This document shows, piece by piece, positions 20,777 through 47,596 of a DNA stretch of 64,000 bases. The notes below the pieces were generated by a model. That model searched no databases, was not told the origin of the DNA, and worked only from the letters and a program-made list of their open reading frames with translations. Numbering within the stretch: position 1 is the first letter of the stretch; each line of letters starts with the position of its first letter. The DNA is from an uncultured Luteolibacter sp. (GTDB lineage Bacteria > Verrucomicrobiota > Verrucomicrobiia > Verrucomicrobiales > Akkermansiaceae), in assembly GCA_964541125.1 (NCBI GenBank), contig CAZIPY010000268.1:21997-85996 (forward strand), in the 5' to 3' direction. A program made the position numbers and the translations under genes.

Positions 20777-23224
20777 TTACCTCACCGGCTGGGCTCGGGG
20801 CGGGTTGGCGGGCCGGGCTCTCGGAACTGCTCGTGGGGCTTGCGGCTCACGCACCGGTTGCGCCCTGGGGGTCGCTCTCGGCGGTGGCACGGCCCTCGGT
20901 GCTCCGCTTGTCACGGGACTGGCCTTGGGTGCCACGGGTTGGCCAGTATTGGGATCAATGGCGATGGCGCGTGCCGGATGAAGTGGGCAAAGCTCGTGAG
21001 GCCGAGGCGCGGTGTCGCGAGGCAGCCAGACTTCCATGGCGTGACCTTCGGCAGCGCATCCCGAGGTCGCAAACTTGCCGGAGAGGCGGCAGATGTTGAC
21101 CTTGATCTTGTCGCGATTGTGCAGCTTTCCGGCGGTGTAGCCCATCGCATCTGCATCCTTCATGATTGCGGTCCACACCGGCAGGGCGAGTGCCGAGCCG
21201 TAGCCGGAACTGATGGTGCGTTTGGGTTGGTCGAAGCCCACCCATACAGCACAGGTGAGCTGAGACGTGTAGCCGGCAAACCAGGCGTCCTTGAAGTCAT
21301 CGGTGGTGCCGGTCTTACCGGCGCAGGGTTTGGTGAAGCCGAGGCGACGAATGGAAGCGGCGGTGCCGCTTTCAGTGACTTCTTGAAGGATGGAAGACAC
21401 CCCGAGTGAGGAGCTGCGGGTGGCCGCCTGATAGGCTAGTGGCCGTGTGGTGTAGAGAATGTTACCGTCGCGATCCCTGATTTCGGACACTAGGTAGGGC
21501 CGGTAGCGAGCGCCCTCGTTTGGGAAAATGGAGTAGGCGGTGGCGACTTCCCATGGTGAGGCTTCGAAGCTGCCGAGGTAAGAGGCCGGAGTCGGCGGCA
21601 CCGCCTTGTTGAATCCGGCAAGCTTGCCGACAAGTTGCACCATTTTCATCCCGGCGAAATTACCGACACGCACGGACATGGTATTGCGTGATCGAATGAG
21701 GCCGTAAGAGGCGGGGAAGCGGCCGCCAAACTTGCCGTCGGAGTTCTTTGGGTTCCAGGTTTCCGCGCCGCGGATCTCACCGCGCTGCAAGGCCGCATCG
21801 CTGACAGGGGTATCGGGGCGCATGCCTTTGTCGAAGGCGGCGAGGTAAACGAAGGGTTTGAAGATGGAGCCGATCTGGCGCATCGCATCTTGAGTGCGGT
21901 TGAATCGAGATTCCTGAACGTTGCGCCCGCCGACGACGGCGAGCACACCGCCGGTACGGTTTTCGATCACCACCGCTGCGCCTTGCATGTACTTGGGCTC
22001 GCGTCGACCCTCCGGGTCGCTCGACTTCCAGCCGGCGCGGGTCTGATGACGATAACCACTCATCTTTTCGACCTCTGTGAGCCGGGCATCTAGCGCCTTC
22101 TCTGCAGCCTGCTGCACGCGGTGGTCGATGGTGGTGGTGATGATCAGGCCGCCAAGCTGGATGTCCTCTTGCTCGAGAATGATGTCGAGGTCGCGGCGGA
22201 TGGCGTTCATTGCATAGGACTCGCGCGACTGGCGACGCGCCATCGGCCGAACCTTGATCTCTGAACTCTTGGCTTCATCGGCCTGTTCTTGGGTGATTTT
22301 ACCGGCCGAGACCATGCGCGCGAGGGTGGTGTTGCGCTCGCGCTCCGCCTTCTCCATGGAGCTGAAGGGGTTGTAGGCATCTGGACCACGAACGATGCCG
22401 GCGAGCATGGCGGACTCTGACAGGTCCAGCTCTACGGGATGTTTCTCGAAGTAGATGCGCGAGGCCTCACCAATGCCCTTGATTTGCCGACCCCAGTTGA
22501 TCTGGTTGATGTAGGCCTCGAGCAGTTCATCCTTCGAGTAATTCATCTCCAGCCTAACGGCGATGGCGATTTCGAGGAACTTGCGGTCGATCTGGCGCAT
22601 CAACTGGCCGCGTTTCTCGCCGGCTTTGAGTTGGAAGATGTCACTGGCGAGCTGTTGGGTGATGGTTGAAGCGCCTTCGCGTTTTCCTCTCAGGTTCATG
22701 ACGAAGGCACGCGCCATGCCGATTGGGTCGAAACCTGGATGGTAGTAGAAGCGTTCGTCTTCGCGTGCGAGGATAGCCATCCGGAAGGGCTCAGCGACTT
22801 CTTCGAGAGGAACGATGGAGCGTTTCTCGCCGTGCATGCGTCCGAGTTCGCGTCCGTGGCGGTCGAGGATCACCGTGCGCTCGCGCATGGCGTGAATCTG
22901 CGACAGATCGTGGCGGGAAGAGCGCGCGCCGTAGACCACAGCCATGACGAGAAAGCAGAAGGCGCCGATGATGGCGGGATGGCCGCCGAGACGCAGCGGC
23001 CACTTCCACCACCACTTCATCTTGGCAGTCAGGCGGTTGAGCAGGAGGAAGGGCCAGAGCAGCACCCACATGCCTGTCTTGGCAGCCTTCTTACCTCGAC
23101 TGCCGCCGCGGCTCTTGGCCCGTTTCTTACCCGAGCTGCGGCGACGATTGCCCGCGGGTTTGGCCGCCTTCTTGGGGCGGGCTCGCTTCTTGGGTGACTT
23201 GCGGGCGGGCACGACGGGCAGCAT
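20777..23224 (-). CDS. Penicillin-binding protein 1A family (class A PBP)
   Basis: GT51 motifs REDERF and GASTITQQL. Transpeptidase motifs SIFK, SRN and KTGT are intact. Pro/Arg-rich tail. Confidence 0.95.
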   Translation of the reverse strand: MLPVVPARKSPKKRARPKKAAKPAGNRRRSSGKKRAKSRGGSRGKKAAKTGMWVLLWPFLLLNRLTAKMKWWWKWPLRLGGHPAIIGAFCFLVMAVVYGARSSRHDLSQIHAMRERTVILDRHGRELGRMHGEKRSIVPLEEVAEPFRMAILAREDERFYYHPGFDPIGMARAFVMNLRGKREGASTITQQLASDIFQLKAGEKRGQLMRQIDRKFLEIAIAVRLEMNYSKDELLEAYINQINWGRQIKGIGEASRIYFEKHPVELDLSESAMLAGIVRGPDAYNPFSSMEKAERERNTTLARMVSAGKITQEQADEAKSSEIKVRPMARRQSRESYAMNAIRRDLDIILEQEDIQLGGLIITTTIDHRVQQAAEKALDARLTEVEKMSGYRHQTRAGWKSSDPEGRREPKYMQGAAVVIENRTGGVLAVVGGRNVQESRFNRTQDAMRQIGSIFKPFVYLAAFDKGMRPDTPVSDAALQRGEIRGAETWNPKNSDGKFGGRFPASYGLIRSRNTMSVRVGNFAGMKMVQLVGKLAGFNKAVPPTPASYLGSFEASPWEVATAYSIFPNEGARYRPYLVSEIRDRDGNILYTTRPLAYQAATRSSSLGVSSILQEVTESGTAASIRRLGFTKPCAGKTGTTDDFKDAWFAGYTSQLTCAVWVGFDQPKRTISSGYGSALALPVWTAIMKDADAMGYTAGKLHNRDKIKVNICRLSGKFATSGCAAEGHAMEVWLPRDTAPRPHELCPLHPARAIAIDPNTGQPVAPKASPVTSGAPRAVPPPRATPRAQPVREPQAPRAVPRARPANPPRAQPVR

Positions 23225-23275
23225 AGGGCATCAGGCCCACGGAATCCACCCCAGATCCTTAAGATTTCCGTAGCA

Positions 23276-26200
23276 TCAAAAACTGACGTCCAGGCTCACC
23301 GTGAAGACCCGCTCATCGGGCGGAGCGACGAAGTAATTGAGGCTGTTGAGGCCGTCGTCTTCGCCGAGCACGTTGAGAATGCTGACGGACAGGCGGCCGC
23401 GCTGGTTCTGAAGCATGCGTCCGATGCTGAGGTTGAGAATGGGCATGCTGGCATCCTCGAGGACGACTCCCAGATCGTTGTCTTGCATCCAGTATTCAGC
23501 CTCAGCAGCCATGAACCACCCATCAGCCCTTTGGTAACGTCCATACAGGCTGCCGACGATCAGATCGGAGCGGGTGCCGTCCAGCAACGGGTTGGAGAGG
23601 CTGGTGGGCGTGTTGAGGGTCTCCTCCATTTCCACGTGTTGCCAACGGGCGCTGGCTCCAATGCTGACTTCATCCGTGAGCAGGTGGTCGAGGCGAGCCA
23701 TCAGTGAGGTTTCCTCGTAGTCGAGATCCTGACGGTAACTACCCACGGTGACGTCACCAGGGTTGGTGGGGAATGCGCCGGTGTTGGTGTCGGAGTCGAA
23801 AAAGACGGATTCTTCAAACACTCCGAAGGAACGATCCCCTGAGAATCTGCCGTGGAAGGCTTCTACGGTAAGCCAGGTGTCCTTGTCCAGCGCACCACTC
23901 AAATTGATGGTGAAATTGTCGTTGGTGCCTCCGGCCATGGTGCCGGTGGCGGTGGTGGGAATCAGTGAGCGGTAGGTGGTGACCAGCCCCGCCACTTGGG
24001 TGGGCTCGAGTCGAAGCTGATCTTCGATGCTGTAACCGCTCATGCTGCGCGCGGCGGCGGCCCGCAGCGTCCAGTCCTCATCGAGCTGCCAGACGATGCC
24101 GAGCTTGGGCGAAATCATCTGACGCTTCTTGCGGCTGTTGGTGAAGGGAGCCGATTGCAGGCCGTCTGCAAAGTCGATGGCCTCCAAGCTCACGCCCCCG
24201 ATCACACTGAAGCGGTCATTGAACTCATGGGTGTAGTAGGCATAGGTCGACCAGCGGGTGAAGTCCTCCTCCGCACGGCCGCTGCCGGCGGAGTCGATGG
24301 CATCGGGAACCAATATCGGATACAGAAAGGAAGGCATCGTGCTGGGGATGGCGGCCAGCACGGTGTTGTCCTGTTCGACTTCGCCGCCCTGATAGCGTGC
24401 GCCCAAGATGAATTGGCGGTGGTCCTGCTTGAAAATGTGCTGCAGCTCCACACTGCCCAGTTGGAATTCCTGCTCGGCGAGCAGGCTGCTCTCGTAAGTT
24501 CTCAGTGCTGGTGCGCCGAAGCTGTTGATGGAGGTGACGGGTCGCAGCGGGTCGTAGATTTCGCTGCGCAGATTGGTGTGGCCGACCAAGGCCAAGGTGG
24601 TGTGCTCCGGATTCCAGTCGCGACCGTAGCTGAGGAAGACCAGGGGCTCCTGCCAATTTTTGGCACGGAGTTCGGGGTCGCGGCCGAAGACCGGATCAAT
24701 CTCACGGCCGGTGTTGGGGTCGATGCCGGGTGGGCCGGTCAAAGGTGGGGTGAAGATGGTCCGACCGCTGGCATCGATGGTGTAGTCACGGGTGGCGCGC
24801 CCGACAGCATCGGGGTTGGTGATCTGGCGCACGTCGCCCTGCTCGGAGTCCTGATAGAGGATGGTGGCGTAAAGACGGTCCTTGGGGCTGAGGTCGTACT
24901 TGAACTGGGTCAGGATGCCGTTGCGGTTGAAGTCATCGTTGAAGTGGTGGGTGCCCCAGTCCTCCTGCAGGACTTCTGCGGCGAAGGCAAAGGGCCCTTG
25001 GTTATAGCTGGTAAAGTTGGAGAGTGAGTAGCGGTTACGCGAGTCGTAGGTGCCGCGCGTGTTGTTACCCCAACCTTGCTGGTTGAATAGCGAGGTGTAT
25101 TCCTGATTGCTCAAGCTCTGTGCGGCCAATCCGGCACCGGCGGGAGCGAGGATGTTGCGCAAGAAGAGTTCGTTGGAGACCACCGTGCCATAGCGTTGGG
25201 CCAGTCCGGCAGGGTCGAGTAAGGGACCATAGGCTCGGGCCATGAAGTCGTGGGAAGCGAAATTGAGGTAGTCGTCGACACCCGCCTTGCCGGCTTCGGT
25301 AAGGGCTTGGGTGGGCAGGCCTGCATCCTGATAGATTTCGGCAAGGTTGCTGCGGCGCACCGCGAGGTCTTCATCGAGCAGCATGCGCGAACGAAAAAGG
25401 CTGCGATTGTCGTTAAGGCGAATCGATTCTTGGAGGTCGCGAATAGCCTCGATGGGTCGGTTGCTGTCCTGTTTGAGGAGAGCCGAGTAGAGCCATGGTG
25501 TGGGATCAGCGGGGTCGAGTTTCTGTGCCAGACTCAACTCGTAGAGAGCTTTGTTCATGGAAGGCGCTGGCTTGAGGGCGAGTTGATCGCGCTGTACTTC
25601 GGCAAAACCTTTGCCGAGGTAGCTGCGCAGAATGGAGCGGTTGGGCTCGAGCGCGGCGGCTGCGGTCAGCGAGCGCAGAGCTTCGGCTTCCTGCTGCTGT
25701 TTGAATTGAATGAGGCCCAGGCCGAGCCAGGCATCGCCATAGGCGGGGGCTACCTCGATGGCCTTCGTGAAGTGCAACTCGGCAGTGGCGAGATCGTTGT
25801 GGGCGGCGCGCTCGAAGCCCGAAAGTACGGAGGCCTCGGCGTTCATGGGTGAGAGTTCACGGGCTTTCTCTAGGCTGATGCCCATGCCTTGGATGCGGCC
25901 CGTGCTGAACTGCAGGCTGGCGAGACGCGACCAAGCATAGCCGAGCTCAGGGGTAGCTTCGGTGGCTCGTTCCGCAGCGGTCAGTGCTCCGAGAATATCG
26001 CCATTGGCCTGCAGGGTGTAGGAACGGGCTAGCCAGCCGGTGGCATTTTGCGGCTGTTGTGCCGGGATGTCTTTGCCGCCCTTTACGGTGGTGATGAGTT
26101 CGAGCAATGCAGCTGCATCTGCCGACTTGGATCCACGCAGAATCTTTCCGGCATCTTCGACCTGACCACTAGCGAGGATCAAACTCGCGCGGTAGACAGC

Positions 26201-26932
26201 GGCGTCACCAGTATTCGCAGCGGGCATGGCTTCCAGGGCGCCCAACAAATCACCGGCGCGATAGGCCTTGAGTGAAGCCTGCATGCCGGCACCTTTCAGG
26301 TTCATTGCATCCACATCCAAAATGGCGGGGTAATAGAGATACCACTGGATGTGTCGGCTGGCGTCGATCATGGGCAGGCGCTGTGGCGCAGCACCCGGCG
26401 CAGTGCGGCTGCGCTCGCCGTCGTTGAGTTCGAGCTCGCCGGCAGGATTGCTCAGGACCACGTTGCCTTCGAAGAGTGTCAGTTCGGTGGTGCCGTCTTC
26501 GAGCACACGGATCTCAAACTCGGTGCCGCGGATGGCAGCATTCACGGAAGCGGTTTGGATGTCTTTCTCCGCATCGGGTTGACGGCTGAAGAAGTGCATG
26601 GCGCCCTTCTTTAGTTGTGTCTTGGCCGATGCCTGACCGGAACTGGCTTTGGGCCGGGCCAGTCGCATGTTGGAGAATTCGCTCAGGCGGATGACGTTGC
26701 CGGAGGGAAAGCGCAGGGCGGCGCGGCTGTATTCGCCAGTACGCACGTGCATGCCGTAGTCGAGGCGGTCTCCTGTTTTAGCGGCGGCCCATTGGCGGCC
26801 ATTGGAGCTTTTTTCAACACTGTTCTCCACGGCGATCAACTCGATGGGCGCCTGAGCGTGAAGTAGGGGCAGCAGAAACAAAAAGAGAGCGAGCCTCAGC
26901 ATGGATTTGGAAATCATGGGAGTAGCGTTCAT
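23276..26932 (-). CDS. FecR domain + TPR repeats + C-terminal TonB-receptor-like beta-barrel protein
   Basis: Signal peptide, FecR motifs VRTGEYSRA, AAIRGTEF and LFEGNV, TPRs (DAWLGLG, DPADPTPWLYS) and a barrel ending SPKLG...LDVSF. Confidence 0.85.
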   Translation of the reverse strand: MNATPMISKSMLRLALFLFLLPLLHAQAPIELIAVENSVEKSSNGRQWAAAKTGDRLDYGMHVRTGEYSRAALRFPSGNVIRLSEFSNMRLARPKASSGQASAKTQLKKGAMHFFSRQPDAEKDIQTASVNAAIRGTEFEIRVLEDGTTELTLFEGNVVLSNPAGELELNDGERSRTAPGAAPQRLPMIDASRHIQWYLYYPAILDVDAMNLKGAGMQASLKAYRAGDLLGALEAMPAANTGDAAVYRASLILASGQVEDAGKILRGSKSADAAALLELITTVKGGKDIPAQQPQNATGWLARSYTLQANGDILGALTAAERATEATPELGYAWSRLASLQFSTGRIQGMGISLEKARELSPMNAEASVLSGFERAAHNDLATAELHFTKAIEVAPAYGDAWLGLGLIQFKQQQEAEALRSLTAAAALEPNRSILRSYLGKGFAEVQRDQLALKPAPSMNKALYELSLAQKLDPADPTPWLYSALLKQDSNRPIEAIRDLQESIRLNDNRSLFRSRMLLDEDLAVRRSNLAEIYQDAGLPTQALTEAGKAGVDDYLNFASHDFMARAYGPLLDPAGLAQRYGTVVSNELFLRNILAPAGAGLAAQSLSNQEYTSLFNQQGWGNNTRGTYDSRNRYSLSNFTSYNQGPFAFAAEVLQEDWGTHHFNDDFNRNGILTQFKYDLSPKDRLYATILYQDSEQGDVRQITNPDAVGRATRDYTIDASGRTIFTPPLTGPPGIDPNTGREIDPVFGRDPELRAKNWQEPLVFLSYGRDWNPEHTTLALVGHTNLRSEIYDPLRPVTSINSFGAPALRTYESSLLAEQEFQLGSVELQHIFKQDHRQFILGARYQGGEVEQDNTVLAAIPSTMPSFLYPILVPDAIDSAGSGRAEEDFTRWSTYAYYTHEFNDRFSVIGGVSLEAIDFADGLQSAPFTNSRKKRQMISPKLGIVWQLDEDWTLRAAAARSMSGYSIEDQLRLEPTQVAGLVTTYRSLIPTTATGTMAGGTNDNFTINLSGALDKDTWLTVEAFHGRFSGDRSFGVFEESVFFDSDTNTGAFPTNPGDVTVGSYRQDLDYEETSLMARLDHLLTDEVSIGASARWQHVEMEETLNTPTSLSNPLLDGTRSDLIVGSLYGRYQRADGWFMAAEAEYWMQDNDLGVVLEDASMPILNLSIGRMLQNQRGRLSVSILNVLGEDDGLNSLNYFVAPPDERVFTVSLDVSF

Positions 26933-29043
26933 TTGGAGTCGAGGCGGAGTACGCCGTCCCAGTCTTCGCCGGGTGGCTTTGATTTGAGAGCGAGGATCTG
27001 TTTCTGAAGAACGAGGGATGGGTTGTTTGCGGTGTGACGTTCCAGTTTGGCGGACTCGCCAAGTTTGGTTTCAGCTTCAGCCCAGTCGCGCTTTAAGTAG
27101 GACTCGAGGGCTGCTTCATAAAGGGCACGGCATTCGAGATCTTTCTCGTTCGTCTGCTCCTTCGTCCCCATCAGCTCGTAGAGCAGAACTGCCTGTTCCC
27201 GGCCAACCACACTCACGCGATTGAGTTTGCGAAAGATGAGATCATCTTCGCCGTGTTCGATGGCCGCGTCGTATGTGCTTTCGCTGACCATGGTGAAAAC
27301 ACCAAAGTGTTTGGCACCGGATTCGCAGCGCGCTGCGAGGTTTACGGTGTCGCCGGTCATGGAGTAGTTGAAGCGCACGGCACTGCCCATGTTGCCAACC
27401 ACCGCGAGGCCGGTATTGAGGCCGATGCGCGTTTGCATGCCGGTGACGATAGCCGGCCACTTGCCCGAATTCTTCCACTTGGCCTGTAGTTCGAGCTGCA
27501 CCTGCTGCATGCGGGCGGCGGTGCGGCAGGCGCGCCAGGCGTGGCGCTTCATCGGCAGGGGGGCGCCGAAAAAGGCGACGATCGCATCGCCGATGTACTT
27601 GTCCAAGGTGCCGCCCTCCTCCTGTAGGACGTCGGTCATGGCGCCCAGGTATTCGTTCATCAGAGTGGTGAGCTCCATGGGCGAGAGAACTTCCGAGAAC
27701 TTGGAGTAGCCGACCACATCACTGAAGAAGGGAGTGATCTCCTCCTCGTGACCACCGAGTTGGGGTTCCTCTCCGGCTTCGGTGATGCGCTGCACCATCA
27801 CTGGGGAGAGATAACTGGAGAAGACCTTCTTCAGTTGGTTCCGTTTTCGCGCGAGGAAGTAGTAGTTGCAGACGTTGCCGTAGACGAAGGCCGTCGGGGC
27901 CTGCACCACGACCGGCACCAACCAGGCAAAAAAGATGCCGCGATCATCAATATACCAGATGGAGGTCAGGCTGATGCCGACAGCAGTCAGCACCGACGCA
28001 ACCAGCGAACCCGTGGGGCCGAAGGGGTTGATCAACAGGGTGAGCAGCAGTGCGGCGAAGCAGGCGACTATGATGTCCAGTTGGTCTCCGGTCGCTGCCA
28101 GCCAGGATTCGTTGAGGATGTTGTGCGTGAACAGCGCCTGCATTTCGACCCCGGCAATTTCGCTGGCTCGGTCCGGCTCATCCTTGGGAGGATCGCCATA
28201 GGGTGAACGATAAACGTCGCGCCCCACTCCAGGCATGCCCACGGAGTGGAGAGCTCCGATGAAAATGCACTTCCCGTTGAAGTCGATGGAGTCGTCCTGC
28301 AGCGCGGTTGAAAAGCTGATGCCTCGGATGGAGGGTGGCGGGCCGATGTAGCGTATCCAGCGAGCTTGCTTGTAGCCTTTCTTGTCGCTGATGCGACTGG
28401 AGTCGATGGTTGTGGCTGCGGCCCAGTAGGCCGGTGTGAAGCGGTCATCGAAAAACACCTGGTCCATTCGGCGCACGCCGTTGTCTTCATAGTCATGCTT
28501 GATGGATACGATGCCCCATCCAGACGCCGCACGTCGCAGAGGAGAGATGGGCACCGAGAATTGTTCCACTGGCTCAGCGACATCGTCGAAGAAATGAAGT
28601 TGGCGGCTGGCGGAGAGCACTACAGATCCTGAATCTTCAATGGCCTTGGCGAAGCGCTCATCCGCGGCAGGGTCAGAACTGGGCTGATCGAAAATGAGAT
28701 CGAAGAACACCATTTTGGGCTGCTGCTTGCTGATCTTTTCCAGTAATTGCGCGTGCAGGTCGCGACTCCAAGCCAAGTCATATGGCTGCTGCAGCTCATC
28801 GTGGGAAATGTCATCGATGTAGATGATCAGAAAGTTTTCGGCGGGATGATAGATGTCCTCTACCGAAAACAAATCGATGCGGTGGAACCAGTCGTGGCTT
28901 TTGCGCTCAAAGAAACCCGCGGGCTGCCAGATTGAGCACGCGATGCCGATAAAAGCCACTACCAGAAAGCAGCCGAGGTATTGTACGGCCAGTTGCCACG
29001 GCTTGCGCTGTTGGGAGCGAATTTTGGGCAGAAAGCGAAGCAC
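26929..29043 (-). CDS. CHASE2-domain class III adenylate/guanylate cyclase
   Basis: CHASE2 motifs (IYIDD, WSRDLHA, FDLIFD, GVEMQA), three TMs, FSSYLSP, and cyclase motifs FFSDVVG, DKYIGDA, GDTVNLAARCE. ATGA overlap with the FecR gene. Confidence 0.93.
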   Translation of the reverse strand: MLRFLPKIRSQQRKPWQLAVQYLGCFLVVAFIGIACSIWQPAGFFERKSHDWFHRIDLFSVEDIYHPAENFLIIYIDDISHDELQQPYDLAWSRDLHAQLLEKISKQQPKMVFFDLIFDQPSSDPAADERFAKAIEDSGSVVLSASRQLHFFDDVAEPVEQFSVPISPLRRAASGWGIVSIKHDYEDNGVRRMDQVFFDDRFTPAYWAAATTIDSSRISDKKGYKQARWIRYIGPPPSIRGISFSTALQDDSIDFNGKCIFIGALHSVGMPGVGRDVYRSPYGDPPKDEPDRASEIAGVEMQALFTHNILNESWLAATGDQLDIIVACFAALLLTLLINPFGPTGSLVASVLTAVGISLTSIWYIDDRGIFFAWLVPVVVQAPTAFVYGNVCNYYFLARKRNQLKKVFSSYLSPVMVQRITEAGEEPQLGGHEEEITPFFSDVVGYSKFSEVLSPMELTTLMNEYLGAMTDVLQEEGGTLDKYIGDAIVAFFGAPLPMKRHAWRACRTAARMQQVQLELQAKWKNSGKWPAIVTGMQTRIGLNTGLAVVGNMGSAVRFNYSMTGDTVNLAARCESGAKHFGVFTMVSESTYDAAIEHGEDDLIFRKLNRVSVVGREQAVLLYELMGTKEQTNEKDLECRALYEAALESYLKRDWAEAETKLGESAKLERHTANNPSLVLQKQILALKSKPPGEDWDGVLRLDSK

Positions 29044-29079
29044 AGCGAGGTAAGGGAGGGAGGCGGCTGGCAGGCCGGG

Positions 29080-32379: not shown

Positions 32380-32502
32380 GCGCAAATCCTGATGAATGCG
32401 GGGATGCAGGCGATTTCCTAACACGAAAATCGCCGGAGGAGGATAGCGATTTCAGGGCTTAAGTGGAAGGGTAAAAGGGGCTCTGAAGGCTCCGCTGAAA
32501 AG

Positions 32503-32607
32503 AGGGCGGGCCTTCTTTTTCGGTGACTTGCGAGCGGGCACGGCGGGCAGCATACGCGATACTCACCGCAGAATCCACCCCCCCCGATCTTTAAGATTTC
32601 CGTAGCA
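32503..32607 (-). pseudogene. Remnant of the PBP1A 5' end and its upstream region (diverged copy of 23174-23275)
   Basis: Encodes MLPAVPARKSPKKKARP versus PBP MLPVVPARKSPKKRARP. The upstream GAATCCACCCC and TTAAGATTTCCGTAGCA are shared. Confidence 0.9.
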
Positions 32608-32665
32608 ATCAGAGCTTCATAAGGAAAGTTTGGCCTGAGTCTGTGGTTGGGGTACATCTGAGCCC

Positions 32666-33412: not shown

Positions 33413-33471
33413 AGCATGGCATGACGATCATGCCCCTCCGCAAGCTGTGCCTGCCGACCAATTGATACCTC

Positions 33472-35579: not shown

Positions 35580-35644
35580 GGGGATGCCAGCTTTAGCATC
35601 AAGATGGGTTGGATCCTTTTCGGGGCCAAAAACCCGTTGAAACC

Positions 35645-35669
35645 GAAACATTCCCGCTGGAGCCTCGTA
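35645..35669 (+). promoter_or_regulatory. Candidate ECF-sigma promoter GAAAC-N16-CGTA
   Basis: GAAAC 35645-35649 and CGTA 35666-35669 fit a SigW-like consensus immediately before the DUF1592 gene. Confidence 0.45.
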
Positions 35670-35688
35670 GGAGGTAATGGTGTTCAGC

Positions 35689-38007: not shown

Positions 38008-38061
38008 GCTCTCAGCCGTGGGCTGAATCCTCCGAAAACACTCCCTCAAACCTCATCCATT

Positions 38062-39369: not shown

Positions 39370-39394
39370 TGCATTGAGAACTGCGATTTCTGCG

Positions 39395-40288
39395 ATGAGA
39401 GTCATCACTTTGTTTCTGCTGTTAGGGCTTGCCGCTTTCACACATGCCGAAGACAAGATTCGTGTGCTGGTCTGGGACGAGCAGCAGCCCGTTCGCAAAA
39501 AGGTCTACGAGAATTTCCCCGGCAACTTCATTGCCGACCATCTTCGCAAGAATCCAAAGCTGGAGGTCACCACGGCCAAACAGGATGATGAAGGCTTCGG
39601 CCTGACCTCCGAAGTGCTCAAGCAGACCGATGTCCTCATCTATTGGGGTCATGTTCGACACAAGCAGATCCCCGAGAAGGTGGGTCAGGAGATCGCGGAT
39701 CTGGTCAAGGCGGGCAAACTGGATTTCATTCCACTTCATTCCGCGCACTGGTCGGTGCCCTTCATGATCTGCATGCAGGAGAAGGCGGCGCAGGATGCCC
39801 TTGAGGCACTGCCCGAAGACAAGCGTGCCGAAGCTAAGGTGGTCTACGAAGGCGAGCTGCAGTGGAAGAAGGCCGGGGCCTTCGATCGCAATGTGTTTCC
39901 ACCACGCTATGAATTCGATGCAGACGGCAAAGTGACGGTTCACGTCAAGCGCCCCAATTGTGTGTTTCCCCGGTGTTGCGGGCCTGGTCAGCCTGGTGAA
40001 GTGCGCATTCTCCACAAGAAACACCCCATCTGCAAAGGGGTGCCGGCCCGCTTCATTCTGGAGATGACGGAAATGTATGACGAGCCCCACGGCGTGCCAG
40101 AACCAGACACGGTGCTCTTCACCGAGAACTGGGCGGGTGGCGAATGGTTCCGTTCCGGCTGCCTGTGGGAACTGGGCAAGGGCAGGGTCTTCTACTTCCG
40201 TCCCGGCGATCAGGCTTATCCGGTCTTTGAAAACCCGAATCTTCTCAAGCTCCTGGACAATGCCACGGTCTGGCTGGGTTCGCAGTGA
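39395..40288 (+). CDS. ThuA-like (trehalose utilisation) domain protein
   Basis: VLVWDE, YWGHVRH, LHSAHWS, EMYDEP and GKGRVFYFRPG. Confidence 0.88.
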   Translation: MRVITLFLLLGLAAFTHAEDKIRVLVWDEQQPVRKKVYENFPGNFIADHLRKNPKLEVTTAKQDDEGFGLTSEVLKQTDVLIYWGHVRHKQIPEKVGQEIADLVKAGKLDFIPLHSAHWSVPFMICMQEKAAQDALEALPEDKRAEAKVVYEGELQWKKAGAFDRNVFPPRYEFDADGKVTVHVKRPNCVFPRCCGPGQPGEVRILHKKHPICKGVPARFILEMTEMYDEPHGVPEPDTVLFTENWAGGEWFRSGCLWELGKGRVFYFRPGDQAYPVFENPNLLKLLDNATVWLGSQ

Positions 40289-40308
40289 GCCTTGCCGCCC
40301 ATTTGATC

Positions 40309-41337
40309 ATGATTCGAATCGCACTCACAATATCCACCTTGGTGATCGGCGCCCAGGCGCAGGAGTTCACCTTCAAGGACCCTAAGCCGCAACGATACCT
40401 GCTCAAGGAGCGGGCGAGCGTGATCGACCCGCGCATCAAGGCTTATCCAAAGATCGGCTTTCTGATTGAGAAGGATGGTAAGCCGCAGGACCTGCAACAC
40501 GCGGCGGTGGACACGAGCGTTGCCCCGCGCGGTAAGCTGGTGATCTGGATGATGGCGCACAACCCGGTGCTCTTCGAGCGGGTCAACAGCTATGGCCTGC
40601 ACATCATCCAGCCGCATTACGCTCGGCATTGGTTCGGCTTGGTCTGTCAGGAGAAACCGGTGGGTGAACAAAGCCGCGGCAACATGCGCTTGGAGGCGGC
40701 GACTGGGGAAGACTTCAGCGACGAGGTCGATCTGGCCAAGCCAGACGGCATGAAGGAGCGCGCCTTCCAATTCGTGAAGTGGTTGGACAAAAACAACCCC
40801 CAAGGCAACTGGGGTTATTTCCTTACCAAGGATGGCAAAGGGTTGCGTTGGGAGCACGTGATCATGGCCGGGGCTTCGCACGGTTCCACGACTTCGGCGC
40901 GCTTCGCCAAGCATCAGAAGGTCAGCCGGGTGGTGATGCTGTGCGGGCCACGCGACCAGTTCCAAACCTGGCAGTCGCTGCCCTCGGCGACTCCCGAGAA
41001 TCGTTTCTTCGGCTTCAGTCACACCTTGGATGGCGGCTGGAAGGCGGATCACTACTGCCGTTCATGGGAACTCATGAGCCTGCATTATTTCGGGCCCATC
41101 GTGGATGTGGACAAGATGGCGCCTCCCTATGGCAGCACGCGTCGATTGATCACCTCCTTTGATGTCGGTGGCAATGCGAACAAGGCACACAGTGCCGTGC
41201 AACCCGGCAAAGCCTCGCTCAAGAAGGATGGCAAATACGCCCACGATGCCGTGTGGCGCTACATGTTCACTCATCCCGTCGACCTGATCGGGAAAAAGAC
41301 ACCACTGGACGAGGGGTGCAACAAGGACCAGCGGTAG
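40309..41337 (+). CDS. BPSS1187-like alpha/beta hydrolase-fold secreted protein
   Basis: WGYFL, GASHG nucleophile elbow, SATP...FGFSH and HSAV...VWRYM. Confidence 0.75.
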   Translation: MIRIALTISTLVIGAQAQEFTFKDPKPQRYLLKERASVIDPRIKAYPKIGFLIEKDGKPQDLQHAAVDTSVAPRGKLVIWMMAHNPVLFERVNSYGLHIIQPHYARHWFGLVCQEKPVGEQSRGNMRLEAATGEDFSDEVDLAKPDGMKERAFQFVKWLDKNNPQGNWGYFLTKDGKGLRWEHVIMAGASHGSTTSARFAKHQKVSRVVMLCGPRDQFQTWQSLPSATPENRFFGFSHTLDGGWKADHYCRSWELMSLHYFGPIVDVDKMAPPYGSTRRLITSFDVGGNANKAHSAVQPGKASLKKDGKYAHDAVWRYMFTHPVDLIGKKTPLDEGCNKDQR

Positions 41338-41363
41338 GTCTTATTCACGAATACCTAGGGCTC

Positions 41364-42656
41364 CTATCGGAACTTGGTGCTCATGATGTAGGCGTACCAG
41401 GCCTCCTCAAATTTCTCCACGCTTTCGTGGCCGAAGATGTCTGCCATGTCCTGCGGGCTAGGCGTTTTGTCGGCCTTGATCATGTCGAGCAGCTTGTTGA
41501 AGCCAGCAGTCATCTCATCGCTGGAGTTCATGTAACTGAAGAGTGCCATGGCGTAGCCTGAGTCATTTGGTGTGAGATCCGCGGTGGTCACGCTGAAGAG
41601 GCGCTCGAGGCTGACACGTTTGTCCTTCTTGCAAAGCGCCTTGAGGGGCTTGACCCAGGACTCGCTGTTGGAGAGGACTTCCGACTTGGTCATGGTCTCA
41701 TTTCCGCCGGCGCCTTCGTAATCGTCGTAGTAGTTTTGGAAGTCGATGTAGTGGACGACACACAGCTCAAAAATCTGATGTTCGGCATAGTAGCCCGCTC
41801 CCATTCGCAGCCAGAAGGGGATCCGGACCTGTTCGGTGCGTGAGGCGACGAGTTGGTAGGCGATGTTGTGAGCGAGTAATTGATGAGGGGATCTGCCAGG
41901 CTGCTTGCGGATCACCAAGAAGCGGTGCTTGTAGTCGCTGAAGTTGTTCACCTGATTGGCCGAGCGGACGAACTTGGCGCGAGCTTCCTCGGAGGGGTAC
42001 TCCTTGCCGTATTGTTCGATCATCGTGCTGTAGGGGCCGCTCTCCGATTCCTGCTCCACCAGATAAATGCGGTGGCGGTAGCGTTTTTCTTCGCCCGGGA
42101 AGTCGTGAGCGTTGGGCTCTTCCAGAGGCGCGCGGAATCCCTGCTGTTCGAACATCGCATCGAGGCCCGGCATGGTCTCAGACATCAAATCATAGATCTT
42201 TTCAGCATATTTGTCCGCGGGGTCGTTCTTGGTGTCGATGGTCAGGATGCGGAAGTGATCGAGCTTCTTTTCCCGGAAATCGAGGTCGGCAAAATCGAAG
42301 ATGGGGTCGTCGGAGAATTTCGTGGGTGCTGCGGGCTTGTCCGGGGTCGACGCATCCGTTGTCTTGGATGAAGGCTTGTCGGCTGGCTCAGGCTTGGCGG
42401 CCGGTTTGTTGGTGTGTTCCTTGATCACCGCCTGGGAGGTGAGCGAGAACTGGGAGATGGGCAGGGTGAAGGTGCGTCCACCTTCCATGGCGATTTCAAC
42501 TTCATCGCCGGCGACCATCAGGATCTTCGCCTGGATGGCACGACCCTTCTTGTCGGTGAGCTCGAGGAAGCCCTCAGCCTGGACGATTGAGGAGGCGGCA
42601 AGGCCGGCGGCGATCGCCATCACGGCGATGGGAGTGGAGAGGCGCCCGTGGAACAT
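41364..42656 (-). CDS. SHD1-like domain + degenerate gluzincin-like secreted protein
   Basis: ELTDKKGRAIQAKI...LPISQFS (SHD1-like) and LAHNIAYQ...PFWLRMGAGYYAE. Confidence 0.65.
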   Translation of the reverse strand: MFHGRLSTPIAVMAIAAGLAASSIVQAEGFLELTDKKGRAIQAKILMVAGDEVEIAMEGGRTFTLPISQFSLTSQAVIKEHTNKPAAKPEPADKPSSKTTDASTPDKPAAPTKFSDDPIFDFADLDFREKKLDHFRILTIDTKNDPADKYAEKIYDLMSETMPGLDAMFEQQGFRAPLEEPNAHDFPGEEKRYRHRIYLVEQESESGPYSTMIEQYGKEYPSEEARAKFVRSANQVNNFSDYKHRFLVIRKQPGRSPHQLLAHNIAYQLVASRTEQVRIPFWLRMGAGYYAEHQIFELCVVHYIDFQNYYDDYEGAGGNETMTKSEVLSNSESWVKPLKALCKKDKRVSLERLFSVTTADLTPNDSGYAMALFSYMNSSDEMTAGFNKLLDMIKADKTPSPQDMADIFGHESVEKFEEAWYAYIMSTKFR

Positions 42657-42709
42657 GGCGTGCTTCTAGCCGAAGATTTCGTTAGAAGCAAGGCGGGCTT
42701 GAGGTGCGC

Positions 42710-43831
42710 TCAGCCGACCTGCCAGCCGGAAGCCTCCACTTCCCGCTCAAAGAGCCCTTCATCCAGCTCAATCCCCATGCCCGGGAGGTCCGGAACGAGA
42801 CAGCGGCCGTTTTCGAAGCGGTAGGAGGACGCATCCAGAGCTGGGAAGCTGACCTCGTCCCATTCGATGTAGAGGAAACGGTCGATGGCCGGCGCGATCT
42901 GCGCACTGGCGCAGTTGCTGTAGCCGCCAGGATAGTTGTGGGGCGAGCGCATCACCTCGGATCCTACGAGTTGGTCCTCAAGCTCGAGCAGCTTGGTAAA
43001 TCCATGCCAGCGGATATCCAGCTGGATGACATCGATGATGCCGTCGAGGGCGTGCTGAATCAGGTCTGGTGACCGCTTGCCCTCTCCATCTGCGATCATG
43101 ACTTTCATTCCCTGCTCCCGGATCCAGTCGTGAAGCAGTTTGGTGTAGAACTGATCCTCATGGAAGGGTTCCTCAAAGAAGCGCAGGTCGCAGTCCGCAG
43201 TTTCCTTCAGCACGGTTTTGGCGATGTTGAGATTGTAGCCGTTGTTGGCGTCGATCATCAGACCAGCTTCAGGCCCCAGAGCCTCCCGGACCGCTCGGAT
43301 GACTCCGATGTCGCGTTGGATCCCGTCTTCTAGATCCATGTGCCAAGCTCCCCGGCCGACCTTGATCTTGAAGGCGCGATGCCCTCTTTCCCAATCCGTG
43401 AGCGCGTTGTCACAAATCTTCTTCACGCCGCCGCCATCGGTGCCGAGATCGTCAAAGTAGAGGGAGCTGGCATAGGCGGGGACCCCCTCGCCGGGTGATG
43501 CTCCTTCGCGGGCGTACAACTTCCAGGCAGGAACGCCCTGCTGCTTGCCCAGCCAGTCGATGAGTGGAAATTCAAATTCGAGAAAATCGGGCGCCACCCG
43601 ATTGTTGGAATCGAACAGTTCCTTGACGGGCGTTTGGATCAACCGTTGGGCATCCGCTTGGTCTGCAGAGGAGGGGCCATGACCGGTGATTCCACCGATG
43701 GAGATGGAGACGTGGTCCATGTAGACCTGATCTCCGTGCACCCCCCGACGGGCGTTGCCGCCCAAGCTGCGGGGGCGTTTTCCCCACAAGCGTGCCGAGC
43801 AGATTCGTTCAGCGGTTTCTTGGCTTCCCAT
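42710..43831 (-). CDS. Mandelate racemase/enolase superfamily enzyme
   Basis: KIKVG, MIDANN, FEEP, ADGE and PHN motifs. Confidence 0.88.
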   Translation of the reverse strand: MGSQETAERICSARLWGKRPRSLGGNARRGVHGDQVYMDHVSISIGGITGHGPSSADQADAQRLIQTPVKELFDSNNRVAPDFLEFEFPLIDWLGKQQGVPAWKLYAREGASPGEGVPAYASSLYFDDLGTDGGGVKKICDNALTDWERGHRAFKIKVGRGAWHMDLEDGIQRDIGVIRAVREALGPEAGLMIDANNGYNLNIAKTVLKETADCDLRFFEEPFHEDQFYTKLLHDWIREQGMKVMIADGEGKRSPDLIQHALDGIIDVIQLDIRWHGFTKLLELEDQLVGSEVMRSPHNYPGGYSNCASAQIAPAIDRFLYIEWDEVSFPALDASSYRFENGRCLVPDLPGMGIELDEGLFEREVEASGWQVG

Positions 43832-43838
43832 GATCTTG

Positions 43839-43916
43839 TTAGCTCAACAAGCCGATGAGCTCACCCGCATTGTGCTTTTGCTCGAGTGGATGTCGCAAGC
43901 GGGTTTTGCGCTGGAT
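43839..43916 (-). pseudogene. Remnant of the 3' end of the winged-helix regulator (diverged copy of 44998-45075)
   Basis: [25 protein letters not shown] versus intact [25 protein letters not shown] (21/25 aa identical). Confidence 0.92.
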
Positions 43917-43984
43917 GTTCACCCATCCGGTGGATGAGTTGGACAGGCCGTTCCGATGGACGACTTCTGCAGCAAGGAGCAAAC

Positions 43985-44863
43985 TCAGTAGCGCCGGCGC
44001 CTCAGCCCTATCATCAGGCCTCCGAGCCCCAATAGGGCGAGTGAGCCGGGCTCCGGAATCACCGAGACAGTAAATGAACCGTCTCCATTGTTGGTGAAAT
44101 GCAATTCGGCATCGAGGTCGCTGGCCAGACTGCCGCCCAGGCGGAAGCTGTCACCAAACTGGTTTCTCACGGTTGTTTCGTCGGCCAGTTGGCCGCCGAG
44201 GTCAGCGGTGAAGGTGCTGCCATAGGCATTGAAGCTGAAATAACTGTTGGCCTGATTGGTGAGGCCGCCGTCGATCCTTCCTGAAAAATCAACCGTGCCG
44301 CCGTTGATCGTCAGTTGTACTGGAATGCTGCTTTCTCCCCATGTGCCGATGTTTCGGTCGTTGAGTAGGGTGCCATCGGCATTCACGAGGATTTTGAGGG
44401 CGGAGTTGGTGCCGCGACGGTCACGTGACCAATCGGCGAATTGGCCATTCACCACAGCGGCGGTCGCGAGGTTGCCGTCACCGATTTCCAGAGAATAAAG
44501 ACCTGCCCCGGTTCCCAAGAACCACCACTCGCGTCCGGCTCTTGCACCATTCAGGTTGATGGCGCCGTTTCTGACATGGAGTTGAGGAATGAGTCGAGAG
44601 GTTCCACTCCACTGGTCGCTTAGCGTGATCGTGCCGGTGGGCATATTGCTCACTGTCTCGGAGTCAAAGATAATAAGGTCAGCGCCACTGGTGGTTCCCA
44701 ATGTAGTCACAGCACCGCCAGGAACTCCGTTGCCATCCCAATTGTTGACATTATACCAGTTGCCACCGTTGTTGCCACCGGTCCAAGTGAAGGTTGCGGC
44801 ATGTGCGGATGAGCAGCCAAAAGCTAGCAAGGCGAGTAGTGTGATCAGCTTGGATTGTTTCAT
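43985..44863 (-). CDS. PEP-CTERM sorting-domain protein
   Basis: Signal peptide, ATFTWTG...WYNVNNW, and C-terminal IPEPGSLALLGLGGLMIGLRRRY. Confidence 0.92.
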   Translation of the reverse strand: MKQSKLITLLALLAFGCSSAHAATFTWTGGNNGGNWYNVNNWDGNGVPGGAVTTLGTTSGADLIIFDSETVSNMPTGTITLSDQWSGTSRLIPQLHVRNGAINLNGARAGREWWFLGTGAGLYSLEIGDGNLATAAVVNGQFADWSRDRRGTNSALKILVNADGTLLNDRNIGTWGESSIPVQLTINGGTVDFSGRIDGGLTNQANSYFSFNAYGSTFTADLGGQLADETTVRNQFGDSFRLGGSLASDLDAELHFTNNGDGSFTVSVIPEPGSLALLGLGGLMIGLRRRRY

Positions 44864-44997
44864 GAGTCGCAATCTCGGGTGAATGGCCATTATTGAATGA
44901 GCCAACTCCAAGCGTAATTCATTTAAGGCTGCTAGTAAAGATCATTTGGCATGACCGTCATCATCTAGCATGAACATATTAAAACTCATGGGAGTGA

Positions 44998-45291
44998 TCA
45001 GCTAAGCAGATCGATGAGCTCACCGACGGTGTGCTTGGATTCCAGTGGATGTCGGAGGCGGGTCTTGCGCTGGATGGTGTAACGGTTGCGGCGCCCGACT
45101 TTCTTCACTTTCAGGACACCGGCATCTGTCAACTCGGCGAGGATGCGTTGAATGGCACGTTGGGTGATCCCAATCAGCTCAGCCAGATCCCGGATCCTCA
45201 GTTCGGGGTCGCGGGAGAGCGCGACCAGGACATGCATGTGATTGCTGAGAAAGGTCCAGCCCTGGACTTTTTTTTCTGAAGAAAGTTTCAT
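44998..45291 (-). CDS. Small MarR/AsnC-like winged-helix transcriptional regulator
   Basis: [33 protein letters not shown] and LRHPLE. Divergent from sbtA. Confidence 0.88.
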
Positions 45292-45452: not shown

Positions 45453-46427
45453 ATGGACTTGCTGATTCAGAACCTCGTCTCACCTGTTGTTCTTGCCTTC
45501 CTTCTCGGGATGATCGCCCGCTGGGTCAAAAGTGACCTCGAAATTCCGGCGCAGATCTATCAGGCACTCTCGATCTATCTGCTCTTTGCCATCGGGCTCA
45601 AAGGTGGGGTTGCGCTGTCACAGACGCCCTTCAACGAGTTGGTTGCGCCTATGGGCATGACCTTGCTGCTCGGAGTGCTGACTCCCTTCTCGGCATATTT
45701 CCTCCTTCGATCCTTCGGCAAGCTAGGTCGAGTGGATGCAGGAGCAACGGCTGCCCACTACGGCTCCGTGTCGGCAGTGACTTTCCTCGCTGCCATCGAG
45801 GTGGTGAAGATGGCCAAGCTTCAACCTGACGGCTTTCTGCCGGCACTGGTGGCCGTCCTCGAAGTGCCGGGCATCATCGTCGGTCTGTTGCTTGCACGTC
45901 CGCGCGGAGGTGCGGGTGATGTAGCCGGTGGCGCCAGCCTCAAGGAGGCCGTCCACGAGGTGATTGCCGGCAAGAGCATCTTTCTGCTGATTGGCGGCAT
46001 GGCCATCGGCGCCTTCAGCGGCGCGGACAAGGTGGACAGTGTCGCGCCATTCTTTGTCGCGCCGTTCAAGGGGGTCCTCTGCCTATTCTTGCTGGAGCTC
46101 GGCATGGTCGCGGCCAAGCGGCTCGGTGACCTGAAGTCCGCAGGATGGCGACTGGTGATCTGCGGTTGCATCCTGCCACTAGTCCACGGCTTGATCGGCA
46201 CTCTCGGAGGCCATTTCGCGGGCATGAGCGTGGGTGGCGCCGCTGTCCTTGGCGCCATGGTCGGCAGTGCCTCCTACATCGCAGCCCCGGCGGCCGTTCG
46301 CATCGCCCTTCCCAAAGCCAGCCCTGGCATTTATCTGACGCTGGCACTTGGGGTGACTTTCCCCTTCAATCTAGCCATCGGTATTCCACTTTTCCTCTCC
46401 TTCGCTAAATTCCTTTCCAATCTTTGA
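45453..46427 (+). CDS. sbtA: Sodium-dependent bicarbonate transporter family permease
   Basis: KSDLEIP, YLLFAIGLKGG, AAHYGSVSAVTF, SASYIAAPA and LGVTFPFN. Confidence 0.93.
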   Translation: MDLLIQNLVSPVVLAFLLGMIARWVKSDLEIPAQIYQALSIYLLFAIGLKGGVALSQTPFNELVAPMGMTLLLGVLTPFSAYFLLRSFGKLGRVDAGATAAHYGSVSAVTFLAAIEVVKMAKLQPDGFLPALVAVLEVPGIIVGLLLARPRGGAGDVAGGASLKEAVHEVIAGKSIFLLIGGMAIGAFSGADKVDSVAPFFVAPFKGVLCLFLLELGMVAAKRLGDLKSAGWRLVICGCILPLVHGLIGTLGGHFAGMSVGGAAVLGAMVGSASYIAAPAAVRIALPKASPGIYLTLALGVTFPFNLAIGIPLFLSFAKFLSNL

Positions 46428-46430
46428 GCC

Positions 46431-46751
46431 ATGAAAACTCCGCTCACACTTGTCACCATCATCACTGAGTCTCTCTTCAAGGAGAAGATCCGCGACGTCC
46501 TGCGTGACAAGGGCGCGACGGGTCACACCATGACCAACGCCAAAGGAGAAGGCTCGCGCGGCACTGGCGCCCCCGACTGGGAAGGTCCCAATATCAAGAT
46601 TGAGACCATCGTTACGGCTGAAGTGGCCGATGCCATCCTCGAGGCGATTTCTGACAGCTACTTTGAGAACCATGCAGTGATTGCCTGGACGACCGAGGTC
46701 AACGTGCTGCGCGCCGAAAAGTTCATCGGTGGGACTTCCACTGGGCATTGA
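46431..46751 (+). CDS. sbtB: PII-like regulator SbtB
   Basis: LVTIITE, GATGHT, GEGSRG, NIKIETIV and VLRAEKF. It starts 3 nt after sbtA. Confidence 0.88.
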   Translation: MKTPLTLVTIITESLFKEKIRDVLRDKGATGHTMTNAKGEGSRGTGAPDWEGPNIKIETIVTAEVADAILEAISDSYFENHAVIAWTTEVNVLRAEKFIGGTSTGH

Positions 46752-46755
46752 AGTG

Positions 46756-47307
46756 ATGAGCGTCCTGCAATTAGAGCAGCAGATCGGACAAGGGACTCGC
46801 AGGACCTGCTTCCTGCACCCTGAGGATCCGAATTGTTGTGTGAAGGTTGCCAACGCGGATCTGGACGACTTCAAAATCGGGCAGGCCATGAATGCCAATC
46901 GCATCGAGCTTGAATTCTGGCACAAGCAGGTGCGCGATGACGAGGTCCTGCGTGACCATTTTCCTGCCGTCCACGGCAATGTTGCCACCGATCGCGGCGA
47001 AGGCCTGGTCTTGGAGCTCGTTCGTGACGGTGATGGCACGATTAGTCCTAAACTTTCTCAATTTCGAAAGGGCGCCAATGAAACGCAGATAGAGATCTTG
47101 CGTGGTCAGCTGAGTCTGATCCGCCATGAGATCATCAGACGGCACATCCAGATCATTGACTGGGGGGCACAAAATATGCTCGTGCAATGTGAAGGAGAGT
47201 CGCTCGTTCTGAAAGTGGTGGACTTTGAGACCCGGCCAAACATGGCCCGATGGTTCAAGCGGATGAAGTCGGCCCGCAAGGCACGCAGATTCTTGCCCAA
47301 GATCTGA
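46756..47307 (+). CDS. YrbL-family kinase-like protein
   Basis: IGQGTRRTCFLHP, CVKV, TDRGEGLV, and D...N / VVDF kinase-like motifs. Confidence 0.8.
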   Translation: MSVLQLEQQIGQGTRRTCFLHPEDPNCCVKVANADLDDFKIGQAMNANRIELEFWHKQVRDDEVLRDHFPAVHGNVATDRGEGLVLELVRDGDGTISPKLSQFRKGANETQIEILRGQLSLIRHEIIRRHIQIIDWGAQNMLVQCEGESLVLKVVDFETRPNMARWFKRMKSARKARRFLPKI

Positions 47308-47361
47308 CATAATCCCCCCAAGCAGTTGCCTGGAACCAGACTCTCTGCTTTGTCGGGAGGC

Positions 47362-47429
47362 TATTTAGAGCACCATTCTGTGATCGACTGCCCACCGAGG
47401 CCAATGTGATTCGTGCCGAGAAAATCATC
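47362..47429 (+). pseudogene. Remnant of the sbtB 3' end (diverged copy of 46659-46727)
   Basis: YLEHHSVIDC-(1-nt deletion)-TEANVIRAEKII versus YFENHAVIAWTTEVNVLRAEKFI. Confidence 0.8.
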
Positions 47430-47596
47430 TCATGCTGGTGTCTGGGGGCACTTTCCCCTTCAATCTGTACATTGGCATCCCGCTCTTCCTCTCCTTCGCC
47501 AAGTTTCTGGCCAACGCCTAAGTCATAAAAACTCCACTCACGATCGTCACCATCATTACTAAGTTTCTCTTCGAGGAGTGAATCTGCGATGGCTTG
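47427..47596 (+). pseudogene. Remnant of the sbtA 3' end plus sbtB 5' end (diverged copy of 46333-46502)
   Basis: GGTFPFNLYIGIPLFLSFAKFLANA*, a 3-nt spacer, then ATA-KTPLTIVTIITKFLFEE*. The start codon is mutated and there is a premature stop. Confidence 0.9.

Follow-up and report, generated by a model that had tools for sequence, protein, structure and literature searches.

The window analysed here is a 64,000-nt stretch (G000:C268:21997-85996) of G000, a Luteolibacter metagenome-assembled genome (MAG) from a biofilm. This work concerns scars within it, at which accessory genes (cargo) lie between the intact end of a resident gene and a diverged copy of that same end. An earlier note had described this arrangement, and self-BLASTN of the window found all four repeat pairs where that note had placed them, all direct, 65-171 bp long and 75-82% identical; none of the 11 non-self matches was inverted. 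The G000 assembly comprises 4.0 Mb in 423 contigs (N50 16 kb) and is 79% complete and 4.95% contaminated. Its 3516 genes were called with our own dicodon script and named by Pfam and NCBIfam. Comparisons were made with the genomes G128, G162 and G116, the nearest to G000 at the penicillin-binding protein gene PBP1A (75-77% DNA identity) among the 209 genomes of the genus set, and with the JGI contig L195.

Gene-end copies in the PBP1A-rpsO interval

The first pair belongs to an intact core gene of the PBP1A family (20777..23212, minus strand; Pfam Transgly and Transpeptidase), which scores 501 bits with TIGR02074, slightly below the cut-off, and has matches in 121/121 genus genomes. The reading frame is open from ATG 23224; neither G128 nor G162 shares this codon in frame, which makes GTG 23212 the likely start. 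The intact repeat copy (23174..23275, minus) consists of a conserved upstream motif and the first PBP1A codons. It starts at the stop codon of a cargo gene, and the similarity of G128 and G162 also stops at 23275. BLASTN aligns 23175-23275 with 32504-32607 (104 bp, 78.8% identity, E 1.5e-17). Between the copies lies cargo 1, three minus-strand genes (23276..32424, Pfam) encoding, from the first gene of the operon onwards, a 1114-aa protein without a Pfam family or a usable match in an Atlas search (29080-32424), a CHASE2-adenylate/guanylate cyclase (26929-29043) and a FecR-TPR-TonB-barrel protein (23276-26932). No match to the cargo 1 DNA was found in G128, G162 or G116, and the FecR-TPR protein is patchy, occurring in 26/209 genus genomes including G000, with the others 33-45% identical. 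Remnant 1 (32503..32612, minus), delimited by BLASTN and by alignment with the relatives, holds ~60 bp of the upstream motif and 12 codons of another PBP1A allele, and faces the cargo 1 operon from 79 bp upstream.

The second and third loci are the two flanks of a single 1.7-kb regulator-sbtA-sbtB module, so the three independent loci of the earlier note may number two or three. The intact winged-helix (MarR/ArsR-like) regulator (44998..45291, minus) is 79% identical to its G162 orthologue, and its 3′ end (44998-45075) recurs as remnant 2 (43839..43917, minus), the last 26 codons, stop included, of another allele of this helix-turn-helix (HTH) regulator. BLASTN aligns 45012-45076 with 43853-43917 (65 bp, 81.5%, E 1.7e-10), and a global alignment reaches the stop codon. 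Cargo 2, a PEP-CTERM surface protein gene (43985..44911, minus; Pfam/NCBIfam), lies between them. On the plus strand follow the intact genes sbtA (45453..46427; Na+-dependent bicarbonate transporter family, PF05982), 83% identical to G162 and patchy in the genus (41/209 at E<=1e-100), and sbtB (46431..46751; PII-like, PF00543). Cargo 3, a YrbL-family gene of 55% GC (46756..47307, plus; PF10707, NF007671 below cut-off, ATG read from the sequence), separates sbtB from remnants 3a and 3b, both on the plus strand and found by BLASTN. Remnant 3a (47360..47429) comes from near the end of another sbtB allele, carries a 1-nt deletion and pairs with 46657-46727 (71 bp, 74.6%, E 1.6e-4). Remnant 3b (47427..47597) holds the last 31 codons of another sbtA allele, the spacer and the first ~24 codons of sbtB, with the start codon lost and a premature stop; its partner is 46333-46503 (171 bp, 74.9%, E 1e-25). 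The two pieces are fused out of order, the sbtB 3′ piece preceding the sbtA 3′/sbtB 5′ piece, via a shared ATC.

Comparison with the relatives places the extra DNA. The order in G162 is PBP1A, then the PSD-domain cytochrome and DUF1552 (HXXSHH) genes, then regulator, sbtA and sbtB, then rpsO and pnp, all in single copy and without cargo. The three gaps between these groups are ~280, ~150 and ~290 bp in G162 versus 12.4, 5.6 and 30.9 kb in G000, and a scar is present at 3/3 of the places where G000 has extra DNA in this interval. G116 has the same gene order minus the sbt module and joins PBP1A directly to PSD, L195 also has PBP1A directly beside PSD, and in G128 different genes adjoin both PBP1A and rpsO. 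The cargo-less relatives that the earlier note had proposed to align, G162, G116 and L195, carry a single copy in place, and no second copy was found at the scar loci in the stretches examined of G128, G162, G116 and L195. The interval spans ~54 kb in G000, ~6 kb in G162 and ~4 kb in G116. Because gene content differs among G000, G162, G116 and G128, the PBP1A-rpsO interval is, in this cross-species comparison, a variable hotspot between two core genes, without mobility genes.

Each gap also holds a distal accessory block. Genes for a DUF6817 protein and for GT4 and GT2 glycosyltransferases (32666..35579, plus; Pfam, 54% GC) precede the syntenic backbone of PSD and HXXSHH (35677..39369, plus; Pfam) and do not occur at the corresponding position in G162, G116 or L195. 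ThuA-like, BPSS1187-like, 430-aa unknown and enolase-superfamily genes (39359..43831, Pfam/NCBIfam) are missing from the G162 interval. The last block, with acyl-CoA ligase, amidohydrolase, helicase, polysaccharide export and glycosyltransferase genes (47598..64000, Pfam), runs on to window-equivalent 77579 and stops before rpsO-pnp; an exopolysaccharide export and glycosyltransferase cluster, from 56751 past 64000, fills much of it.

The absence of integrase, transposase and tRNA genes reported in the earlier note was borne out. The window contained no detectable tRNA or tmRNA and matched no Rfam family, and no integrase or transposase family was found among its 51 open reading frames (ORFs) or the 34 flanking ORFs of C268 by Pfam scans of called ORFs, the sole means by which transposases were looked for. 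Six-frame searches of G000 detected 9 tyrosine and 2 serine recombinases, 0 of them on C268. An att core was also looked for: each remnant matches only its own partner at E<0.05, and no common core sequence links the targets. An integrase-mobilised genomic island was rejected, as there is no recombinase at an edge and no tRNA, and the repeats are 75-82% identical gene ends rather than identical att sites.

The junctions were checked in per-run Logan contigs of X1-X4, the only listed runs to contain this DNA, all four from one biofilm sample that is probably the source of the MAG. Contigs with zero differences bridge the PBP1A/cargo join (X1, 22652-23343) and remnant 1 (X1, 30659-35861). Remnant 2 is bridged in four runs (X1, X2, X3, X4) and the regulator stop is also spanned; the sbtB/yrbL join is covered by X1 and X3, and the left and inner junctions of remnant 3 by X1 (46827-47583). 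Among the pieces listed, no contig spans the right end of remnant 3 (47597). Mis-joining is ruled out at the bridged junctions, the runs representing one sample and not an independent population. An assembly chimera of co-occurring strains, which the earlier note had considered and which a 79% complete, 5% contaminated MAG and the presence of related organisms in the same sample might invite, is thus hardly credible: nearly all junctions are crossed with 0 differences, right end of remnant 3 excepted, and a frameshift, a lost start and a stop would be unexpected in the gene of a living strain.

Divergence and lineage of the copies

Analysis of the 114 alignable codons revealed 19/18/44 differences at codon positions 1/2/3 between remnants and intact copies, a third-position excess (p=8e-5); the pooled pS of 0.54 and pN of 0.14 correspond to a dN/dS of 0.16. 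These values were set against a null model of exact duplication with selection on the intact copy, a neutral remnant and matched total divergence. The observed synonymous fraction was reached in 1/714 pooled simulations and, per locus, in 69/1279 (locus 1), 27/683 (locus 2) and 2/702 (locus 3); slightly different segments gave a dN/dS of 0.17, with 0/400 null runs reaching the observed fraction in each of 8 settings. The sbt remnant pieces also carry marks of decay, namely the 1-nt deletion, an ATG changed to ATA and the premature stop. Since a low dN/dS is combined with a later frameshift, lost start and stop, the remnants are once-functional coding alleles that later became dead DNA. The earlier view of the copies as two such alleles rather than fresh target-site duplications is thereby sustained, and the codon-position counts and the pooled simulations rule out a neutrally decayed target-site duplication of an insertion sequence (IS) or transposon. 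A diversity-generating retroelement acting between template and variable repeats (TR/VR) was rejected as well: the differences hit all four bases, and no reverse transcriptase (RT) family was found among the window ORFs.

To which lineage each copy belongs was examined with 24 genes common to the four genomes, 19/24 of which group G000 with G128 (amino-acid informative sites 197:59:43). The intact PBP1A gene also groups with G128, at 21/24 informative amino-acid sites. Remnant 1 groups with G162 against the intact copy and G128 at 6/6 informative sites; its identity is highest to L195 (82%), followed by G162 (80%), the intact copy (76%) and G128 (67%). As the genome itself groups with G128, remnant 1 is not a within-lineage duplicate. 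On these alignments, an intact gene that is native and a remnant 1 that is the broken end of incoming donor DNA are somewhat favoured over a remnant that is the old resident end. The claim in the earlier note that the old end had been left behind therefore does not hold as worded, since at PBP1A it is the intact gene that follows the species tree. Incoming DNA from another lineage is indicated at locus 1; at loci 2 and 3 the sign is allele-like divergence alone, and trees did not resolve the grouping of the sbt remnant, its intact copy and G162.

Two other sources were considered. Arrival of the whole PSD-HXXSHH-sbt-rpsO block from the G162 lineage was not supported by comparisons of PSD, HXXSHH and rpsO-pnp. 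The PSD tree joins G162 with G116 (98/97), G000 having a branch length of 0 and the outgroups being distant, and the HXXSHH tree was not resolved; rpsO-pnp is G128-like overall (35:12:9), with one 200-bp window nearer G162 (informative sites 2:2:1). A second sbt module on C253 was rejected as the source of the sbt remnants, which are 55-65% identical to it versus 75% to the local copy. This regulator-sbtA-sbtB module (L177) shares 68% DNA identity with that of the window and could be a true paralogue or bin contamination.

A junction that retains both partners lies on C174 (6396-13307; L167). There, ridA and recQ are followed by a fused 97-bp piece (36 bp of the recF 5′ end and 66 bp of the ridA 3′ end), two sulfotransferase genes and intact recF. 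The copies are younger, being 89-94% identical, and 7/9 of their differences fall at third positions. Because recF lies directly after recQ in G162 and G116, the recF piece is at its native position, and the junction appears to be the meeting point of an old resident end (recF) and a donor end (ridA). A donor fragment that ended inside ridA would have undergone an illegitimate join to the resident recF, with its anchor downstream. The recF|ridA join falls on GGTGC, 5 bp common to both partner genes; together with the ATC of the inner sbt junction, microhomology is found at 2/2 junctions for which both partners are known.

Probable recombination with related DNA and its alternatives

We consider that the scars arose, with a probability of about 0.65, by one-sided homologous recombination with DNA from related Luteolibacter followed by an illegitimate join, in the manner of homology-facilitated illegitimate recombination (HFIR), with cargo stacked in the hotspot. 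They would then be the footprint of a known recombination route and not a new element. Relatives share genes and gene order here, so a non-homologous join could land inside a gene end present in both partners. One copy would survive intact while the other became a stranded fragment, and the cargo of the two partners would end up stacked next to each other. Whether the fragment was the old end of the resident or the broken end of the donor, the final layout would be the same. Since remnant 3 is itself a tail-to-head junction, the sbt site would require at least two events. Allele-like divergence, a scar at each insertion point, microhomology, the lack of a recombinase on C268 and the local, direct character of the gene-end copies all support this origin. 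Conservation and position further suggest that remnant 1 may be retained as a putative promoter of the cargo 1 operon, which it faces, since what the relatives conserve of it is the upstream motif. A scan of 32380-32720 found no sigma-70 promoter-like site.

Several observations weigh against this reading. No homologous crossover that could serve as the anchor was mapped: PBP1A is G128-like over its whole length without a lineage switch, and neither PSD-HXXSHH nor rpsO-pnp shows a clear switch. Of the mechanism advanced in the earlier note, the illegitimate join is backed by microhomology at two joins; a crossover for the homologous anchor was not found inside PBP1A. An allele divergence of 18-25% also greatly exceeds what RecA can pair efficiently, which would imply closer, unsampled relatives as the true anchor and donor. 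Against the neutral-decay null, loci 1 and 2 are borderline when taken singly. With G162 as reference, the regulator remnant and the intact copy are sisters (6:2:1, 4:3:0), as would also be expected of a local duplicate, and the lineage signal of remnant 1 amounts to 6 sites in ~110 bp. Moreover, in a low-depth contig from another organism of the biofilm the body of PBP1A carries a 5′ end resembling the remnant (joints 23083>32503, 23150>32508), yet the sequence just downstream is G128-like, which blurs the lineage assignment of remnant 1. The competence genes that the earlier note had suggested looking for, comEC and dprA, were found in G000, but ComEC and DprA also match in 10 and 11 of 14 control genomes and give no indication of competence. 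Finally, HFIR is very rare in E. coli conjugation, at 3e-10 per recipient (PMC3240628).

The leading alternative is a local tandem duplication within the lineage, with long-lived working paralogues, near-complete deletion of one of them and separate arrival of the cargo. It predicts the same low dN/dS, tail-to-head microhomology junctions such as those at sbt and recF|ridA are its signature too, the window contains genuine tandem paralogues (serpins and the 7941-10120 repeats, below), and the sister position of the regulator remnant fits it. We nevertheless regard it as unlikely, given that remnant 1 groups with another lineage and not with the intact copy, that the coincidence of remnants with insertion points relative to G162 (3/3) is left unexplained, and that the examined stretches of G128, G162, G116 and L195 hold no second copy. 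Less probable still is a Campbell-type single crossover, by which circularised foreign DNA carrying cargo and a gene-end piece would integrate and create two hybrid direct repeats. It would give the same gene-cargo-remnant layout without an integrase, and circularisation and single-crossover integration of linear DNA are on record for E. coli (PMC3240628). It would, however, require RecA to mediate a crossover in a stretch of just 70-170 bp at 75-80% identity; hybrid copies would be expected, yet the 6 informative sites of locus 1 split one way, and the fused ends of two different genes are not accounted for.

A further alternative is integrative elements that target protein-coding genes and supply a replacement gene end, their recombinase having been lost or acting in trans. 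Replacement fragments are known for integrative elements, and the genome has 9 tyrosine and 2 serine recombinases. Such an origin seems very improbable here, with no recombinase on C268, cargo without mobility genes, unrelated targets hit at both 5′ and 3′ ends without a common core, and out-of-order junctions that are not att-like. One-sided recombination with an illegitimate join remains our preferred explanation.

The scars, as putative products of the process, resemble HFIR as PMC3240628 presents it, with foreign DNA beside a conserved gene, no integrase and junctions mostly with 3-10 bp of microhomology; HFIR is on record in S. pneumoniae, A. baylyi, P. stutzeri and E. coli conjugation. 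HFIR also couples the insertion to a deletion of recipient DNA of similar size; each scar has lost most of one allele, which a later deletion would produce just as well. They differ in being old natural products between lineages ~20% diverged, with inserts of up to 9 kb versus ~1 kb typically, and in having the join inside a gene end common to both partners so that an allele pair is left. The mobile-element-free hotspots of a 2017 study (PMC5635113) are likewise highly variable intervals between core genes with no integrase or tRNA. Their model is a double crossover with clean interval replacement and the comparison is within species, whereas here at least some events are additive and scarred and the comparison is across species. 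Merodiploids and tandem duplications formed by transformation in S. pneumoniae share tail-to-head junctions and short additive duplications that lack flanking repeats, but arise mostly between IS repeats and with identical alleles (PMC3784515); the alleles here are diverged and no IS is present. At dimorphic "microdiversity" loci, homology-assisted illegitimate recombination was also inferred from genome comparison, but the accessible text of PMC2884548 concerns short (<500 bp) within-species replacements and describes no stranded diverged gene ends, in contrast to the stranded ends here. Literature searches judged by title or abstract opening, with little coverage of subscription papers, listed no survey of diverged gene-end remnants.

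The present analysis contributes a relative without cargo, evidence that a donor's end can be the one stranded, and a junction of two alleles. Thanks to that relative and to recF|ridA, the geometry can be read with unusual clarity, and a stranded end that may be the donor's matters for dating or orienting transfers by such scars. Many bacterial gene-gain hotspots are free of mobile elements, 27% having no integrase or transposase (PMC5635113), which raises the question of how genes first enter them, and the scars offer a clear natural footprint of a laboratory-described route. A broader proposal, tentative and in our judgement doubtful, is that additive recombination between species, at hotspots of shared gene order, regularly brings in genes without an integrase; both cargos would be kept, the end of either partner could be stranded, and promoter-supplying ends such as remnant 1 would be selectively retained. 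If so, allele-pair scars would give a genome-only readout of DNA exchange partners and exchange frequency in uncultured lineages, for which no measurement of HFIR is known.

Scar frequency and neighbouring repeats

A genome-wide scan compared 6146 gene ends with 576 kb of non-coding DNA, "near" matches representing 0.38% of the search space; 56 far matches and one near-inverted match at contig edges were set aside. The 12 near-direct matches that it returned fell at 10 sites, alongside 3 sites with near-inverted and 25 with far internal matches. Removal of two PEP-CTERM motif copies and one Mur-ligase fragment left 7 sites, to which a pairwise scan added one on C6 and a second on C74. This brings the candidate scars in the 4.0 Mb to ~9, of which the PBP1A-rpsO hotspot contributes 3, and outside the window C174 is the sole candidate confirmed against relatives. 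The suggestion of a major route of gene gain is not borne out by such numbers, and of the 1.2-1.6 Mb that G000 has in excess of its closest relatives, the scars mark only a few tens of kb. Fragmentation hides 7-61% of pairs spaced 0.7-9.4 kb, and the genome perhaps holds 10-20 scars. Because the hotspot window is not a sample of the genome average, and scars form only if the join lands in a shared gene end, the low count is compatible with a larger role without showing one.

Among the other candidates, C6:4113-4916 and C74:80496-86710 hold gene-end remnants that carry stops or substitutions and flank one gene and several genes, respectively; the neighbourhood of the former was not found in G162 or G116, and G128 has one flank gene only. 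C382 (L168) carries, 8 kb downstream of a gene, a decayed copy of its 3′ end and terminator, a piece that matches a C247 paralogue equally well, as well as several Mur-ligase gene fragments in both orientations.

A motif scan of JGI metagenomes returned 11 loci, one being the relative L195, and found no conspecific genome of G000. The ten other contigs (L196-L205) have a 37-bp match to the pattern of the PBP1A upstream motif, probably an unrelated repeat; the four examined are low in GC (33-44%) and without similarity to G000 proteins.

Near PBP1A, a second and shorter class A penicillin-binding protein (587 aa, partial transpeptidase domain; 17946-19709) is kept in G116 and G162. A GT2 ORF (19861-20751) lies between the two genes in G000, and G116 has a different gene there. 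Two tandem serpin genes (4893-7876; 68% DNA identity) are followed by four short related ORFs with diverged direct repeats (7941-10120). Elsewhere in the genome, C284:58672-63567 contains cassette-like non-coding direct repeats of 110-140 bp, 80-92% identical and 1.0-1.4 kb apart, and dispersed palindromic non-coding repeats of ~70 bp, REP-like, occur on C411 (10387-20428), C34 (7592-9540), C278 (8898-8969) and other contigs.

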